A stretch of 64,000 nt of DNA. Origin: Lysobacteraceae bacterium SCN 69-320 (GTDB taxonomy: Bacteria; Pseudomonadota; Gammaproteobacteria; Xanthomonadales; Rhodanobacteraceae). Positions 45,300-51,760 of this stretch are shown piece by piece. The notes below the pieces were generated by a model that saw only the letters and a list, made by a program, of their open reading frames with translations, searched no databases and was not told the origin of the DNA. The first letter of the stretch is position 1. Each line of letters begins with the position of its first letter. The translations under genes and the position numbers were made by a program. The stretch lies in the NCBI GenBank assembly GCA_001725155.1, contig MEFP01000017.1:2338-66337 (forward strand), in the 5' to 3' direction.

Positions 45300-45505
45300 G
45301 GGCGTTTTCCGCGACGAATGACCGGCTAGCCTACTGCATGCGCCACGCCGCCACCGGTGCAGGATTCGCCAAGGCCCCGGCCGTCCGGCGCATCCGACCA
45401 TTGGCGCCGTTCGCTTCGCGCTTCGCCACCGGTTTCACGGTATGCGGCGTTGCGGCCGATGCAGCCTGCGCCGCCTGCCGACTGCCCGATACCGCGGAGC
45501 CTTCC

Positions 45506-46846
45506 ATGTCACGCACTTTCCTGCTGCCGCTCATGCTGCTGGCCGCTACAGCCAACGCCGCGACCTATCAGGTCGGACCCACGCGCACCTATGCCAGCCT
45601 GAACCAGCTGTTCGCCGCGCAGGATCTCGGCGGCGGCGATGTCGTCGAAGTCGACGGCAACGTGACCTATGCCGGCGGCGTCGTGGTGCCGTCCGGCGAC
45701 GGCGGCAGTCCCGGCAACCCGGTCGTGATCCGCGGCATCCGCGTCAACGGCCAGCGCCCGCACATCGCCGGCGGCACGAACACGGTGGAGTTCCGCCAGT
45801 CCAATTACCTCGTGTTCGAGGGCTTCGAGGTCAGCGGCGGCAGCGCGCGCTGCATCCTGCAGGGCGCCCACGAAGTGACCGTGCGCGACAGCGTGATCCA
45901 CGCCTGCCCGGCTCACGGCATCCTCAGCACCGATCAGCTGTCGGGTTCGTTCACCCTGGAATATTCCGAGATCTACGACGCCGGCGCCGGCACCTCGCAG
46001 CATCCCCTGTACATCCAGAGCGACGAGATCGCCTGGCCCGGCTCGGTGTTCCGCATGCGCTACAACTACGTGCACGACGGCACCGGCGGCAACCTGCTGA
46101 AGTGCCGCCACGAACGCGCCGAGATCCACTACAACTGGTTCCAGGGCGCGGCCTATCACGAGCTGGAACTCATAGGCCCGGACGAGAACACGCAGCAGGC
46201 CGGCTGGAGCCGCGACCTCGTGCGCGAGGACCAGGACGTCGTCGGCAACGTCATCGTGCACAGCAATCCGGCTTTCGGCGCCGTCATCCGCATCGGCGGC
46301 GACGGCACCGGCGTCAGCAAGGGCCGCGCGCGTTTCGTCAACAACACCTTCCTGCTGACCTCGGGCACGGACACGACGGTGTTCCGCATCTTCCAGGAAA
46401 TGCAGTCGGTGGAGATGCACAACAATGTCATCGACGCGACTGCCGGCGGCGTGCCGCGCATCATCCGTGCGGTCGCCGGCGAGCTGGCCTGGACCGACGG
46501 CCGCCAGATCCGCGGCAGCAACAACTGGATAGAAAGCACGGCGACGTTCGTGCCGGATGCGAGCGAGTGGAGCGCTACCCTGAGCGGCACGAATCCCGGT
46601 TTCGTCGACGCCGCCGGCTACGACCTGCGCCCGGCCGCCGCCAGCGTGCTGCGCGATGCCGGCAACGGCGCTCCGGCCGGTGCGCCGGGCTTCGGTTTCC
46701 CGACTCCGCTGTTTCCGCCGGCTGTCCAGCCGCAGCGCGCGGCGACCGCGCCCGGCGCCGCGCTCGCACGTCCCGTCGACGCCGCGATCGACATCGGTGC
46801 GTTCGAGCGCGCCGGCGATGTCATTTTCGCGAACGGGTTTCAGTGA
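45506..46846 (+). CDS. Secreted right-handed parallel beta-helix protein with choice-of-anchor-Q-like end and C-terminal DVIFANGFQ tag
   Basis: Signal peptide ANA|ATYQVGP; Asn-ladder repeats (RYNYVHDG, HYNWF, VGNVI, VNNTF, HNNVI); PGFVD...YDLRP...S.L.DAG and IDIGAFE. Start moved to ATG 45506. Confidence 0.82.
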   Translation: MSRTFLLPLMLLAATANAATYQVGPTRTYASLNQLFAAQDLGGGDVVEVDGNVTYAGGVVVPSGDGGSPGNPVVIRGIRVNGQRPHIAGGTNTVEFRQSNYLVFEGFEVSGGSARCILQGAHEVTVRDSVIHACPAHGILSTDQLSGSFTLEYSEIYDAGAGTSQHPLYIQSDEIAWPGSVFRMRYNYVHDGTGGNLLKCRHERAEIHYNWFQGAAYHELELIGPDENTQQAGWSRDLVREDQDVVGNVIVHSNPAFGAVIRIGGDGTGVSKGRARFVNNTFLLTSGTDTTVFRIFQEMQSVEMHNNVIDATAGGVPRIIRAVAGELAWTDGRQIRGSNNWIESTATFVPDASEWSATLSGTNPGFVDAAGYDLRPAAASVLRDAGNGAPAGAPGFGFPTPLFPPAVQPQRAATAPGAALARPVDAAIDIGAFERAGDVIFANGFQ

Positions 46847-46990: not shown

Positions 46991-47265
46991 TTCGATCGGC
47001 AGCAGGCGATATTGCCGCGAAGACGTGCACGGTCGTGCGTCCCGAAAATTCATCGCCGTGCGCGTCGAAAGAATCCGAAGCGCCGCCCTGCCGCTTTGAA
47101 TGCCGACGGCGAGGCGATGACGAAATCGTCCGCATCGCGGAACTCGCCATCCCTGTCGCAAGTCACTGGATCGCGCGCATCGCGGCATGAATTTTCCATT
47201 CTCAGAGACCGTTCCGGCGAGCGTTTCCTGTTGCCGGCGACGGCGTGCGTGCGCAGGAAGCTGCC

Positions 47266-47835
47266 ATGTCATCAATGGTCCGTATCGCCGCATGGCTGGC
47301 CTGGCCGGTCTTCGCGATCGCCGTGCTGTTCCTGCTGCTGCTGGTTTTCCTTGCCGCGAGCCTCAGTTGCACTTGCGTCGACTGCAGTAGTTACAACGCG
47401 AGCAGGGCGGGCATCTGGAAGCTCGCGATGTGCGTCGAGGCGTTTCAGCTGGACTGCGGCCGTCTGCCGGATCAGCTCGACGAGCTGATCAGCGAAGTGC
47501 GCCCTGAAGGTTGTGCAGGGCCCTGGGCGCGGGCGTCGGATCTTCGCGATCCGTATGGCAGCCGCTTCGTCTATCGGCGTTCCGCAGACGGCAGCAGCTT
47601 CGAAGTGCGCGGCATCGGACGCGACCGGGTCTATGGCAGCGCCGACGACGTGACGACGAGCGACCGGCCCTGGCCCTGGCTCGAGACGTTCTGGCGCAGG
47701 CCGCTGTGGGACTGCGTGATCGTGACCCTGCCGTGGTTCTCGATCCCGCTGGGGCCGCCGTTGTGGCTCATGGCTGCGATCGTCCGCCGCATACACCGGA
47801 CAGCGCGCCGGTGCGAGGCGACGGCCACAGAGTGA
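47266..47835 (+). CDS. GspG C-terminal (T2SSG)-like domain protein, paralog 1, hydrophobic segments at both ends
   Basis: L...VEAF.LDCGRLP..LDEL, DPYGSRFVY, GIGRDRVYGSADD match the GspG head pattern; no G/F-x3-E prepilin site. Confidence 0.72.
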   Translation: MSSMVRIAAWLAWPVFAIAVLFLLLLVFLAASLSCTCVDCSSYNASRAGIWKLAMCVEAFQLDCGRLPDQLDELISEVRPEGCAGPWARASDLRDPYGSRFVYRRSADGSSFEVRGIGRDRVYGSADDVTTSDRPWPWLETFWRRPLWDCVIVTLPWFSIPLGPPLWLMAAIVRRIHRTARRCEATATE

Positions 47836-48084
47836 ATGCGAGGGAATCTGCCGCGCAGCGTGAATACGGCCGAACTCACCGGGCCGTGTGAATGCGGCGG
47901 AATTTGCCGCGCGGTGCAACTGTGGAGGAATGCGCCACGCGGTGAGAAGGAAGCGGAACTTGCCAGTCTGCTCGCCGGTCGATTGAACGCCGCTTCACGG
48001 CAACCCCCGGCCCCTTTTCATGCATGCCCGACGGTCGCTCTCTCGCGGCGGCTGCGCCGGTGCGTGCGCGTGCAGGAGTCGCTC

Positions 48085-48678
48085 ATGTCGTCATGGATCC
48101 GTTACTTGGGTGCCGGCCTCGAGGTTTGTGCCGGGCTGCTGTTGCTCGCCGCGCTGGTCTCCTGGCTCAGCCTTATGGGCGGCTGCGATCTCGAACACGG
48201 CCGCTACCGCGCCGCGCAGGTCCAGGCGGAGCGGCTTGCGCTGGTAGTCGAGGGATTTCGCAACGACTGCGGCCGTTTGCCGGATCAGCTCGACGAGTTG
48301 TTCGGCGTCGTGCGCGACCGTAACTGTTTCACGACGCCGCCGCGCTTCTCGCAGCTCGTCGATCCCTGGGGCAGTCGCTTCGTCTACTGGCGCGCCGACG
48401 ACAGCAGGACGTTCGAGGTGCGCTCGGTCGGCCGTGACCGTACCTACGGCAGCTTCGATGATGCGACCAGCGGCGGCTGGACCTGGCCTTGGCCGCAGCC
48501 GCCATGGTCCTGGGCGGAGCGCGGCCGGCGCGTCGCTCCGATAGTGATGCTCGTGCTCGCGTTGCTGCTGCTGGGGGCTCTGACGCTGCGGCTGCTCGAG
48601 TTCGCGATCCGCCTCGTCCGTGCGGTCTGGCGCTGGCTCGGGCCGGCCGGAGCCGGCGCGTCGCAGCCCGGGGAATGA
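48085..48678 (+). CDS. GspG C-terminal (T2SSG)-like domain protein, paralog 2, hydrophobic segments at both ends
   Basis: L...VEGFRNDCGRLP..LDEL, DPWGSRFVY, SVGRDRTYGSFDD; C-terminal TM IVMLVLALLLLGALTL. Start moved to ATG 48085. Confidence 0.75.
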   Translation: MSSWIRYLGAGLEVCAGLLLLAALVSWLSLMGGCDLEHGRYRAAQVQAERLALVVEGFRNDCGRLPDQLDELFGVVRDRNCFTTPPRFSQLVDPWGSRFVYWRADDSRTFEVRSVGRDRTYGSFDDATSGGWTWPWPQPPWSWAERGRRVAPIVMLVLALLLLGALTLRLLEFAIRLVRAVWRWLGPAGAGASQPGE

Positions 48679-48867: not shown

Positions 48868-48883
48868 CCTCTATATCTTGTGT
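48868..48883 (+). promoter_or_regulatory. NrdR box candidate overlapping the nrdAB promoter
   Basis: cctCTATATCTTGTGT fits the consensus acaCwAtATaTwGtgt; weak second box at 48835-48850; ttgacc (48850-48855) is a -35 candidate. Confidence 0.65.
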
Positions 48884-48884
48884 T

Positions 48885-49070
48885 TCGTCGGTTCCCGGTC
48901 ACGGCCGGGATTAAACGGGAATCCGGTGCAATTCCGGAGCTGCCCCGCAGCGGTAAGCGGAAACGAACGCCGTCAACAGCACTGGCCACACCGGCTGGGA
49001 AGCGACGGCTACTAGGAGGTTGCGGCGTCCCGCAACCGCGTCCGCAAGCCCGAATACCTGCCGACGGCCG
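48885..49070 (+). ncRNA. Cobalamin (B12) riboswitch
   Basis: ggttc...ttaaacgggaatccggtgcaattccggagctgccccgcagcggtaa...cactgg...ctgggaagcg...agcccgaatacctgcc (B12 box); in the 5' leader of nrdA. Confidence 0.92.
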
Positions 49071-49297
49071 CGCGTTGCACACCGCGCGGTAACGGCCAGG
49101 AGTCTCCGCGGGGAGACGGGTCGCGTTGCGCTGTCGGCCGTTTGGCCGGCCCGGCGCCTGACCCGACTTTTCGCCACTCCGCACGCCCGAGGGGGTGTGG
49201 CCTCGCCTGCGGCCTGGACCGCGGCGTTGCCGTCCCCTCGTTTTGCCGTCCCCGGGATCGGACGGCAGCCGTGCGCCACTCGCACCGGAGGGAGTTC

Positions 49298-51760
49298 ATG
49301 AGCACCACCGAACACGAAATCGCCGCCGCCGCTCGCACGGCCGCTGCCCAGGCCGAAACGCGCGCGCCGCAGTTCGCGCTGACGCCGCCGCATTCCAGCG
49401 GCGTGATGGCCGTGACCAAGCGCAACGGCAAGCGCGAACCGGTCGATCTGAACAAGATCGTGCGCGCCGTGACGCGCGCGGCCGAGGGCCTGTATTCCAC
49501 CGATCCGATGCGTGTGGCCACGCGCACGATCTCCGGCCTCTACGATGGCGCGACCACGCGCGAGCTCGACGAACTGTCGATCCGCACCGCTGCGATGCTG
49601 ACCGCCGAGGAACCCGAATACGGCCGCCTCGCTGCGCGCCTGCTCAGCGAATACATCGCCAAGGAAGTCGCCGGCCAGGAAATCCACGCGTTCTCGCAGT
49701 CGGTCGCGCGCGGTCACGAGCTCGGCCTGATCAACGAGCGCCTGCTGAACTTCGTCCAGGCCAATGCGCGCAAGCTCAATGCGGCGCTGGATGTGGAGCT
49801 CGATCGCCGCTTCGACTACTTCGGCCTGCGCACGGTGTACGACCGCTACCTGCTGCGCCATCCCAAGACGCGCAAGGTCGTGGAGACGCCGCAGCAGTTC
49901 TTCCTGCGCATCGCCTGTGCGCTGTGCGAGGACGTGGGTGAGGCGCTGGAGCTGTATCGCCTGATGGGCAGCCTCGACTATCTGCCGAGTTCGCCGACCC
50001 TGTTCAATTCCGGCACCACGCACGAGCAGCTGTCGTCGTGCTTCCTGCTCGATTCGCCGGACGATTCGCTGGAGTCGATCTACAAGCGCTACGCTGACGT
50101 GGCGATGCTGTCCAAGTTCTCCGGCGGCATCGGCCTGGCCTATACGCGCGTTCGCGCCCGCGGCTCGCTGATCAAGTCGACCAACGGCCTGTCCAACGGC
50201 ATCGTGCCGTGGCTCAAGACCCTGGATGCGTCGGTCTCGGCCGTGAACCAGGGCGGCAAGCGCAAGGGCGCGGCCTGCGTCTATCTGGAGCCGTGGCACG
50301 CCGACATCGAGGAATTCCTCGAGCTGCGCGACAACACCGGCGACGAGGCGCGCCGCACGCACAACCTCAATCTCGCGAACTGGATTCCGGATCTCTTCAT
50401 GCGCCGCGTCGAGGCCGACGCGCACTGGTCGCTGTTCGATCCGAAGGTCGTGCCGCATCTGGTCGACCGCTGGGGCAGCGCGTTCGAAACCGCGTACGAG
50501 CAGGCCGAAGCGGCCGGGCTCGCGGCCAAGCAGGTCAAGGCGCGCGATCTTTACGCGCGCATGATGCGCAGCCTGGCGCAGACCGGCAACGGCTGGATGA
50601 CGTTCAAGGACAAGTCCAACCGCGCCTGCAACCAGACCGCGAAGGACGGCAACGTCGTGCACCTGTCGAACCTGTGCACGGAAATCATCGAGGTCAGCTC
50701 GCAGGGCGAGACCGCGGTCTGCAATCTCGGCTCGATCAACCTCGGCCAGCACATGAACGCCGACGGCTTTGACTTCGTCAAGCTGGCCGAGACCGTGCGC
50801 GTGGCCGTGCGCCAGCTCGACCGCGTCATCGATCTGAACTACTACCCGATCGAATCCACGCGCAGCTCCAACCTGAAGTGGCGTCCGGTCGGTCTCGGCG
50901 TCATGGGCCTGCAGGACGTGTTCTTCAAACTGCGCCTGGCCTTCGATTCGGCCGAAGCGCGCGAGCTGTCCACGCGCATCGCCGAGGAAATCTACTACCA
51001 GGCGCTGCTGGCCTCGCACGAGATCGCGCTGGAGCGCGGTGCGCATCCGTCGTTTGCCGACACGCGTGCGGCCCAGGGTGAGCTGCAGTTCGACGCCTGG
51101 GGCGTGACGCCGGGCGACACGGCGCGCTGGGATGCGCTGCGCGAAAACATCAAGCGCGGCGGCCTGCGCAATTCGCTGCTGGTCGCGATCGCACCGACCG
51201 CGACGATCGCCTCGATCGCCGGCTGCTACGAGTGCATCGAGCCGATGGTGTCGAACCTGTTCAAGCGCGAGACCCTGTCGGGCGACTTCCTGCAGGTCAA
51301 CAAGTACCTCGTCGAGGAGCTCAAGCAGCTCGGCCAGTGGACGCCGGAAATGCGCGACCGCATCAAGCTGGCCGAAGGCTCGGTGCAGGGCATCGCCGAG
51401 ATCCCCGAGCGCCTGCGCCACATCTATCGAACGGCCTGGGAAATTCCGATGCGTTCGCTGATCAACATGATGGCCGCGCGCGGCGCGTACATCGACCAGT
51501 CGGCCTCGCTCAACCTGTTCATGGAAAGCCCGAACATCGGCCAGCTCTCGTCGATGTACATGTACGCCTGGAAGGCCGGCCTGAAGACGACCTACTACCT
51601 GCGCTCGCGTCCGGCGACCAAGATCGCCAAGACCACGGTCGCGGCGACGGCCGCCGCACCGGCGCCGGCACCGGCTGCTCCGGCAATCACGCAGCAGCAG
51701 GCCGAGGCGGCCGTGTTCTGCTCGCTGGAGAATCCGGAGTATTGCGAGGCGTGTCAGTAA
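49298..51760 (+). CDS. nrdA: Class Ia ribonucleotide reductase alpha subunit with N-terminal ATP-cone
   Basis: VTKRNGKRE ATP-cone, SSPTLFNSG, LSSCF, GGKRKGA, SNLCTEI, AIAPTATIA, LKTTYYLRS, C-terminal CEAC. Start moved to ATG 49298. Confidence 0.95.
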   Translation: MSTTEHEIAAAARTAAAQAETRAPQFALTPPHSSGVMAVTKRNGKREPVDLNKIVRAVTRAAEGLYSTDPMRVATRTISGLYDGATTRELDELSIRTAAMLTAEEPEYGRLAARLLSEYIAKEVAGQEIHAFSQSVARGHELGLINERLLNFVQANARKLNAALDVELDRRFDYFGLRTVYDRYLLRHPKTRKVVETPQQFFLRIACALCEDVGEALELYRLMGSLDYLPSSPTLFNSGTTHEQLSSCFLLDSPDDSLESIYKRYADVAMLSKFSGGIGLAYTRVRARGSLIKSTNGLSNGIVPWLKTLDASVSAVNQGGKRKGAACVYLEPWHADIEEFLELRDNTGDEARRTHNLNLANWIPDLFMRRVEADAHWSLFDPKVVPHLVDRWGSAFETAYEQAEAAGLAAKQVKARDLYARMMRSLAQTGNGWMTFKDKSNRACNQTAKDGNVVHLSNLCTEIIEVSSQGETAVCNLGSINLGQHMNADGFDFVKLAETVRVAVRQLDRVIDLNYYPIESTRSSNLKWRPVGLGVMGLQDVFFKLRLAFDSAEARELSTRIAEEIYYQALLASHEIALERGAHPSFADTRAAQGELQFDAWGVTPGDTARWDALRENIKRGGLRNSLLVAIAPTATIASIAGCYECIEPMVSNLFKRETLSGDFLQVNKYLVEELKQLGQWTPEMRDRIKLAEGSVQGIAEIPERLRHIYRTAWEIPMRSLINMMAARGAYIDQSASLNLFMESPNIGQLSSMYMYAWKAGLKTTYYLRSRPATKIAKTTVAATAAAPAPAPAAPAITQQQAEAAVFCSLENPEYCEACQ

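Follow-up and report, generated by a model that had tools for sequence, protein, structure and literature searches.

Two tandem genes, referred to here as A and B, lie on contig MEFP01000017.1 of Lysobacteraceae bacterium SCN 69-320, within a stretch of 64,000 nucleotides that was analysed as a whole and is called the window (G+C content ~70%). By profile and predicted fold, both encode a genuine head domain of GspG, the major pseudopilin of type II secretion systems (T2SS). Judged from their sequences, A and B belong to a small and patchy family in which this head is detached from the pilin pathway. The preferred explanation is that the GspG head is reused as a stress-induced, non-polymerising periplasmic protein; this reading as a whole is tentative, with a probability of roughly 45%. 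A preliminary description of the region had proposed a repurposed family, and this proposal is borne out: the head is kept, the prepilin site is lost, a tether is gained, and the genes are found apart from those of the T2SS.

Organization of the Two Genes

The elements of the two open reading frames (ORFs) are as follows; TM stands for transmembrane.

47266-47835, + strand: ORF A, 189 amino acids (aa); N-terminal hydrophobic segment, GspG-type head, Trp/Pro linker, Pro-rich C-terminal hydrophobic segment and Arg-rich tail
47284-47367, + strand: N-terminal hydrophobic segment of A, residues 7-34; signal-anchor or cleaved signal peptide, Kyte-Doolittle windows up to 3.08
47383-47646, + strand: head of A, T2SSG domain, residues 40-127; Cys64/Cys83, Asp triad D120/D127/D128; PF08334 at 34.8 bits
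47704-47784, + strand: Pro-rich C-terminal hydrophobic segment of A, residues 147-173, LWDCVIVTLPWFSIPLGPPLWLMAAIV, followed by RRIHRTARR
48085-48678, + strand: ORF B, 197 aa; architecture as in A, with a clear C-terminal TM helix
48103-48183, + strand: N-terminal hydrophobic segment of B, residues 7-33; relic G9-A-G-L-E13, lipobox-like LMGG-C34-D
48193-48459, + strand: head of B, T2SSG domain, residues 37-125; Cys62/Cys81, Asp triad D118/D125/D126; PF08334 at 30.1 bits
48475-48531, + strand: Trp/Pro-rich juxtamembrane linker of B, residues 131-149, GWTWPWPQPPWSWAERGRR, as read from the sequence
48532-48588, + strand: C-terminal TM helix of B, residues 150-168, followed by an Arg-rich amphipathic tail; Kyte-Doolittle up to 2.74 (19-residue windows)

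Both ORFs begin with MSS, and a good Shine-Dalgarno sequence stands before each start codon: AGGAAG at a distance of 8 nt for A, AGGAG at 7 nt for B. The G+C content at third codon positions (GC3) is 0.82 in A and 0.82-0.84 over both ORFs, compared with 0.67-0.69 in the flanking non-coding spacers. Close homologs are found in genomes of Tahibacter (Lysobacterales), among them orthologs of A that are 74% (P0014) and 63% (P0015) identical to it. The preliminary description had considered that the ORFs might be untranslated pseudogenes; their conservation, the purifying selection on their core and the coding-type GC3 argue against this, and A and B are conserved coding genes of accessory status.

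The paralogy of the two genes is confirmed. BLASTP aligns A and B with 52 of 102 residues identical (E 2e-29), the 46 identities counted earlier in a 76-aa core are reproduced in the best ungapped window, and the DNA of 47452-47487 differs from that of 48265-48300 at exactly 2 of 36 nucleotides, as had been reported. The counterpart of A in a close strain (P0013, 207 aa) is the same as A through ...DRPWP and then continues in another frame, which corresponds to the window's 47511-47891 ORF; this is either a real frameshift that deletes the C-terminal anchor or an assembly error.

The GspG-Type Head

Both heads exceed the gathering cut-off of the Pfam family PF08334 (T2SSG), which is 21 bits. 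When compared with the Protein Data Bank (PDB), the profile of the family matches GspG-type chains only, the best being XcpT (2KEP, 1.5e-9). The AlphaFold2 model of B, built from an alignment of 37 sequences, has a mean predicted local distance difference test (pLDDT) of 78.9 and values of 86-91 across most of the head. In a Foldseek search of the PDB with this model, ranks 1-16 are all occupied by major pseudopilins (EHEC GspG, EpsG, PulG, XcpT), with a probability of 0.92-1.00 and TM-scores of 0.48-0.66 normalised by the target. A structural match to GspG, the lack of which had been named as one point on which the earlier interpretation could fail, is thus present for B. The model of A, which could draw on a shallow alignment of 13 sequences, is poor (pLDDT 61) and was not used.

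The putative calcium site provides the third line of evidence. Gly116, Asp118, Asp125 and Asp126 (B numbering) are invariant across 25 diverse family members, and the spacing of the three Asp residues in B equals that of D117, D124 and D125 of PulG/OutG, which coordinate calcium (PMC13081927); the calcium-loop motif is also described in PMC3396595. The residues D120, D127 and D128 of A are likewise invariant in the family alignment, and their spacing is that of the ligands. All three Asp residues are kept in 197 of 243 aligned domains. Because the profile match, the structural match and the invariant Asp triad agree, the GspG-like head recognised in the preliminary description is a true homolog of the GspG head.

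The pair of Cys residues that had been noticed in both proteins is real (C64/C83 in A, C62/C81 in B) and invariant in the close family. The first of them, in DCGRLP, is located where helix alpha-1 ends and the second in the alpha-beta loop. Over the aligned domains, both residues are present in 54 cases, neither in 169 and one alone in 20. Since the two co-occur, the pair fits a predicted disulfide that would staple the alpha-beta loop to helix alpha-1.

Loss of the Prepilin Signal and of the T2SS Context

The class III (prepilin) signal directs a pilin-like protein to its processing. Neither A nor B has a match to the prepilin motifs PF07963 (N_methyl) or TIGR02532, even at E<=1, and a regular-expression search of both for the signal itself (Gly at -1, a hydrophobic residue at +1, Glu at +5) is negative. 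No in-frame prepilin leader is located upstream of either ORF. What B and most of its orthologs retain is a degenerate relic, R-x-x-G-A-x-x-E, with the Glu at +4 instead of +5. The position of the Gly at -1 is taken by Val in one ortholog of B and by Arg in another, and the T. caeni protein has Arg at +1, which shows that the relic is decaying. The earlier claim that the prepilin site is missing holds in the sense that neither protein has a working one, and the class III signal is by sequence absent or degenerate in the A/B family.

Public records label the orthologs of A and B 'type II secretion system protein GspG'. Against the GspG equivalog model TIGR01710, A and B reach 22.6 and 27.0 bits, which is below its cut-off of 88.85, and the name is not supported by these sequence-based membership tests.

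The genomic context points in the same direction. No gene for a T2SS or type IV pilus (T4P) ATPase of the GspE type, for GspG or for a prepilin peptidase is found on the contig of the window, and the earlier statement that A and B are T2SS orphans can be extended from the window to this contig. The genome encodes one prepilin peptidase and two T2SS clusters. Its two canonical gspG genes are located on other contigs (C5 and C1) and have the leaders GFTLIE and GFSLLE; one is followed by gspH, and the other stands between gspF and gspH. The neighbours of A and B are instead a beta-helix protein on one side and a B12 riboswitch with nrdAB on the other.

Membrane Segments and Topology

The N-terminal hydrophobic segment of A and B may be a cleaved signal peptide. 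A loose lipobox rule of the PROSITE type fits both proteins, at Cys35 of A in the lipobox-like sequence LLVFLAASLSC and at Cys34 of B. The lipobox of bacterial lipoproteins has the form [LVI][ASTVI][GAS]C and stands where the N-terminal signal peptide ends; at -3, A has Ser or Thr. Most orthologs of B have [LIVM]-G-[GS]-C-D, and two (P0008 and P0010) are without the Cys. An Asp at +2 of a lipoprotein is an inner-membrane retention signal in E. coli. In the model of B, this part consists of a helix (residues 3-31), a break at GGCD and a second helix (36-62).

The head is followed by a Trp/Pro linker, which reads GGWTWPWPQPPWSW in B. The linker had been described for both proteins, and it is found again in the sequences of both, its WPWP-type motif being conserved throughout the close family. 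The second hydrophobic segment, also described for both, is clear in B (peak Kyte-Doolittle of 2.88 over 17 residues), where the model contains a C-terminal helix (142-185) with a pLDDT of 87-91. The segment of A is weaker (1.48) and Pro-rich but strongly conserved: it is near-identical in three species, with a C-terminal ratio of nonsynonymous to synonymous rates (omega) of 0.27 against the ortholog of Tahibacter sp. UC22_41. The sequences thus support the view that A and B are membrane-tethered. Anchoring at both ends, as originally proposed, stands for the C-terminal anchor, which is family-wide, and is uncertain for the N-terminus because the hydrophobic segment there may be removed as a signal peptide.

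The Wider Family

An exhaustive profile search returns 3038 proteins at E<=1e-3, chiefly ordinary pseudopilins, and just 9 at E<=1e-30. An architecture that recurs in the best matches consists of an N-terminal signal or hydrophobic segment, a head with the Cys pair, an aromatic linker, a hydrophobic helix and an Arg-rich C-terminus. The head of this architecture contains DCG-x-LP with the second Cys about 19 residues further on, and the linker is of the PW/WPWP type. Several distant members (P0156, P0144, P0047 and P0032) have textbook signal peptides with an AXA site. Because many relatives have such ordinary cleavable signal peptides, the anchor common to the family is the C-terminal one.

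The census of 182 sampled proteins includes 43 that lack a prepilin leader and have a C-terminal TM segment, and none of the 182 combines a prepilin leader with a C-terminal TM segment. In a maximum-likelihood tree, one branch (support 98/93) parts the C-anchored proteins from those of the prepilin type; the C-terminal region that the former share adds to this signal. Both the anchor at the C-terminus and the pair of Cys residues are derived features, shared within a clade that reaches beyond Tahibacter; C-anchored members outside this genus include P0031, P0033, P0042, P0044, P0144 and P0156. Word-indexed homolog searches gave few distant members, and the genomic context outside Tahibacter is thin. 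The literature search found no description of prepilin-less, C-terminally anchored GspG-head proteins and nothing relevant on pseudopilin-like orphan proteins or on the T2SS of Tahibacter.

Relatives of other architectures are also present. Soluble proteins with 2-4 heads and no anchor include P0022, P0026, P0030 and P0178. Further multi-head relatives (P0034, P0045, P0064, P0080 and P0112, also with 2-4 heads) end in Gly-Cys-rich sequences such as GCGCSF, GGCSFRAY and WWGCSFTRY, which recall sorting signals of the MYXO-CTERM type and may be an alternative anchor for the same head. In the metagenomic protein P0018 (348 aa), two complete units are fused, each with a head, a WPW linker, a TM segment and an Arg tail. 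This fusion suggests that tandem paralogs can fuse, and neighbouring copies may act together.

Candidate Sigma-E-Type Promoters

Alignment of the otherwise diverged regions upstream of A and B reveals a conserved motif, GGAACT-N17-GTC(A/G)xT, which corresponds to the promoter type of the extracytoplasmic function (ECF) sigma factors related to sigma-E.

47139-47167, + strand: putative ECF/sigma-E-type promoter of A, GGAACT-N17-GTCACT, 127 nt before the ATG
47955-47983, + strand: putative ECF/sigma-E-type promoter of B, GGAACT-N17-GTCGAT, 130 nt before the ATG

The consensus of E. coli sigma-E is GGAACTT / (T/C)GGTCAAAA, also written GGAACTT/GGTCAAA, and FkpA is a core member of its regulon (PMC1312014). 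In the 64-kb window, the motif has 2 matches, which are the two upstream of A and B, with 0.09 expected by chance. Two other Tahibacter species have the promoter of A in front of their orthologs of this gene, at -123 to -127. That of B is kept in the ortholog of UC22_41, and T. caeni has a variant with ATCGAA as the -10 element. Over the loci examined, 8 of 12 family genes have the motif at a similar distance. The rpoE ortholog of the genome (322 bits against TIGR02939) is itself preceded by GGAACTT-N16-GTCTTG, and the same motif stands ahead of the genes of two periplasmic prolyl isomerases (an FkpA-type FKBP and a PPIC rotamase) and of an M23 peptidase. By their sequence, the promoters of A and B are each conserved and of the sigma-E/RpoE type of ECF promoters.

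Two minor features were observed in connection with these promoters. The 5′ leaders of both genes contain, just past the -10 element (47168-47190 and 47984-48006), a conserved small hairpin of G and C pairs. It reads CGCG-CGCAT-CGCG in A, GCCG-CTTCA-CGGC in B, so that different base pairs maintain the stem in the two paralogs; it could be a stabiliser of the 5′ end or an operator. On the reverse strand at position 34741 of contig C7 (genome G000), a GGAACT-N16-GTC motif precedes a gene for a 351-aa signal-peptide protein with no Pfam match, which may be another envelope-stress gene.

Distribution and Evolutionary Rate

In Tahibacter-like genomes, the family occupies one locus, which is directly upstream of the cobalamin riboswitch with nrdAB and has an M20 peptidase gene on its other side. 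The A-B pair is syntenic in three Tahibacter species, and the copies at the locus vary as follows.

Tahibacter sp. UC22_41: A-B pair
T. caeni: A-B pair
metagenomic relatives (L043-L046): three deeply diverged paralogs
T. harae: two copies
rhizosphere lineage: one copy

Among the 16 species genomes sampled in the genus, 8 have 1-3 copies and 8 have none; two matches in the genus contain in-frame stops. The number of paralogs, to which the preliminary description had drawn attention, amounts to 0-3 at one locus across the genus. In a sample of the order, a C-anchored member occurs in 2 of 151 genomes, namely this genome and one other, and a locus search with a narrow alignment gave 3 loci only, all from Tahibacter or Lysobacterales. 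The roles suggested at first (T2SS/Tad modulator, decoy, immunity-like protein or sensor) are conjectural; searches of PADLOC, PHROG and plasmid sequences gave no match for the family and indicate no link to defence, phages or plasmids.

The rates of evolution between species were compared for parts of A and B and for the adjacent nrdA gene, with dN as the nonsynonymous divergence.

A and B, whole protein: identity 52-74%, dN 0.15-0.39, omega 0.3-0.7
A and B, head core: dN 0.08-0.23, omega 0.18-0.39
A and B, flanks: dN 0.13-0.56, omega about 0.3-1.75
nrdA: identity 98%, dN 0.008-0.010, omega 0.04-0.05

The amino-acid sequences of A and B thus evolve about 20-40 times as fast as that of NrdA. 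The core is more constrained than the flanks, as the comparison of the two parts proposed earlier now makes visible, and the C-terminal segment of A is the exception among the flanks. The term 'diversifying', which had been applied to the family, is partly supported, by the fast evolution and the varying number of copies; the omega values of head and flanks suggest a relaxed constraint on the anchors. The pattern looks like a fast, mainly relaxed evolution of the anchors round a constrained head, and positive selection is not demonstrated.

A Proposed Stress-Induced, Non-Polymerising Head

The explanation preferred here combines the properties of the proteins with those of their promoters. A and B would be transcribed during envelope stress, under the control of RpoE (sigma-E) or of another ECF sigma factor much like it, and would be exported by Sec. 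The head would then be located in the periplasm, stabilised by calcium and the predicted disulfide, and the C-terminal helix would hold it on the inner membrane, in A and B perhaps together with an uncleaved or lipidated N-terminus. Because such a protein has no processed, extractable N-terminal helix and its C-terminus is pinned, the head is predicted to be unable to enter the pseudopilus. A speculative role is that of a binding or decoy module, induced by stress and unable to polymerise. The module would occupy a partner of pilin or pseudopilin heads, for example the assembly platform of the T2SS or T4P, other pilins or secretion substrates, and filaments would in this way be assembled less, or elsewhere, as long as the envelope is damaged.

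Several observations weigh against this explanation. The genome-wide count of the promoter motif is 24, which is not above that of permuted motifs (mean 30), so that no enrichment is claimed and the promoter call is based on position and conservation. About 20 ECF-type sigma factors are encoded in the genome, which makes the assignment of the promoter to RpoE itself tentative. No gene neighbour ties the family to the T2SS at the loci examined, and relatives with two heads and no anchor also sit in unrelated contexts. Any role must be dispensable, since half of the Tahibacter species sampled are without the family. The version of A in one close strain (P0013) is frameshifted.

Alternative Explanations

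The account that survives best beside the preferred one, unlikely as it is, regards A and B as arms-race proteins, i.e., fast-diversifying immunity, decoy or exclusion proteins that guard the periplasm against a toxin or phage component that targets pilin-like heads. Immunity genes typically encode small proteins tethered to the membrane in the periplasm, and A and B would match this general picture. The account would also explain an amino-acid divergence 20-40 times that of nrdA (dN 0.15-0.39 vs 0.008-0.010), the presence of 1-3 deeply diverged paralogs at one locus and the restricted occurrence of the family, which was found in only 8 of the 16 species sampled from the genus and in 2 of the 151 genomes from the order. 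However, no toxin, type VI secretion system, phage or mobile-element gene stands beside the array in any locus, and PADLOC, PHROG and plasmid matches are lacking. Constraint is strongest on the head (omega 0.18-0.39), where interactions would probably take place, and the anchors drift. Moreover, the sigma-E-type promoter points to a housekeeping stress control.

A more specific form of the preferred explanation is doubtful, with a probability a little below that of the arms race. It regards the head as a stress-controlled regulator of type IV filament machines and assumes that the sigma-E-induced, C-terminally pinned heads dock on the platform of the T2SS or T4P. Those of the B lineage, which still have a Gly/Glu relic in the first helix, would act there as dead-end subunits that cannot be extracted and would switch off secretion for the time of the envelope damage. 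If true, the response to envelope stress would be directly connected with type II secretion in a way not known before.

Improbable to a further degree is a sorting tag of the PEP-CTERM or LPXTG type, in which the Trp/Pro motif, the TM segment and the Arg cluster would be cleaved off and the head released or attached to the surface. The three-part C-terminus (motif, helix and basic cluster) of many relatives, such as P0156 with ...LIRRRQRRR, P0042, P0033 and P0044, and the ordinary cleavable signal peptides of many of them resemble such a system. The details of the tag do not: the PW/WPWP motif is located 10-25 residues ahead of the helix, not against it, and the tail of B extends about 29 residues beyond the helix. 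Nor is there machinery to go with it, as the genome has no exosortase (PF09721 negative) and no sortase-like gene is adjacent at the loci examined; among NCBIfam models, no C-terminal sorting domain matches at E<=1, the sole match being TIGR01710.

It is very improbable that A and B are genuine, if atypical, pseudopilins. The sequence of B could be read as a cleavage site, R-Y-L-G|A-G-L-E, after a short basic leader, with Gly9 kept in 7 of 9 and Glu13 in 8 of 9 orthologs (by eye), and the prepilin peptidase and the two T2SS clusters of the genome could serve a minor subunit that is part of a T2SS or T4P filament or caps it. In contrast, the Glu at +4, the Val or Arg at Gly -1 and the Arg at +1 in T. 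caeni are not those of a working site, A and most other subfamilies are without the relic, and N_methyl does not match. The C-terminal TM segment with its predicted cytoplasmic Arg tail would also block extraction into the filament, and a canonical leader never occurs together with it.

The equally remote idea that A and B are decaying gspG duplicates without a function of their own draws on the high overall omega (0.3-0.7), the frameshifted A of P0013, the in-frame stops in two genus matches and the half of the sampled species that lack the family, but several observations speak against it: the ORFs are full-length in several species, where their starts, Shine-Dalgarno sequences and promoters are conserved, the core is under purifying selection and the C-terminal segment of A conserved, GC3 is coding-like, and the added anchor and Cys pair are shared by a clade beyond Tahibacter.

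Relation to Known Systems

The nearest known relatives are GspG, PulG, XcpT and EpsG. With these, A and B share the predicted fold (long alpha-1 helix, alpha-beta loop, small antiparallel sheet), the continuation of the N-terminal hydrophobic helix into the helix of the head, and the Gly-x-Asp...Asp-Asp calcium loop with identical spacing. Unlike them, A and B have no class III signal, prepilin-peptidase processing, N-methylation or gsp operon, are predicted to be unable to polymerise and score far below the TIGR01710 cut-off; they add the Cys pair, the Trp/Pro linker, the C-terminal TM helix and the Arg-rich tail. The soluble multi-head proteins with GspG domains (P0022, P0026, P0030, P0178) resemble A and B in having the head without a prepilin leader, an ordinary signal peptide and a location away from T2SS genes. 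They differ in their 2-4 tandem heads, in having no C-terminal TM segment and, for the most part, in the lack of the Cys pair. With the members of the sigma-E (RpoE/AlgU) regulon, e.g., FkpA, the two genes share the promoter type GGAACT(T)-N16/17-GTC and products that face the periplasm. A and B have no kinship in sequence or fold to known members, their membership would follow from the sequence of the promoters, and they are accessory rather than core.

The definition of pilins and pseudopilins is built on two properties, the processing signal and polymerisation. The clade described here would be an example of domain reuse, in which the GspG head and its calcium site are kept, pilin export is swapped for Sec export, and a disulfide and a C-terminal anchor are gained. 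The label GspG, given to these proteins in databases, is on this account a misannotation. Provided that the sigma-E promoters are real, the family connects a protein derived from a pilin with the response to envelope stress; to our knowledge, no connection of this kind has been described between stress signalling and the machines of secretion or of pili. The head may also be of use as a scaffold for display or binding in the periplasm, because it is small and tolerant of very different flanks and because calcium and a disulfide are predicted to stabilise it.

Neighbourhood of the Array

The upstream neighbour of A in the window (45338-46846, + strand) encodes a secreted protein of the right-handed beta-helix-like type; a thioesterase and a TolC-like gene follow further upstream. 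At other Tahibacter loci, an M20 peptidase and an AFG1 ATPase are the upstream neighbours; since these differ between loci, the left boundary of the array appears to be a rearrangement point. On the right side, a cobalamin riboswitch (RF00174, 119 bits; 48872-49080, + strand) is located directly upstream of the class Ia nrdAB genes (nrdA at 49298-51760), an arrangement that is conserved in all Tahibacter loci seen and suggests a B12-dependent repression of the aerobic ribonucleotide reductase.

In T. harae, the gap between the array and the riboswitch (L047, 8650-9500) contains about 850 bp of short dispersed or tandem repeats at the place where relatives have a third paralog. When translated in all six frames, they give the repeated peptides GNFGTPT, EFRDTH or ISGHPQ, and they look as if repeats had expanded, or a REP-like element were present, where a gene was lost.

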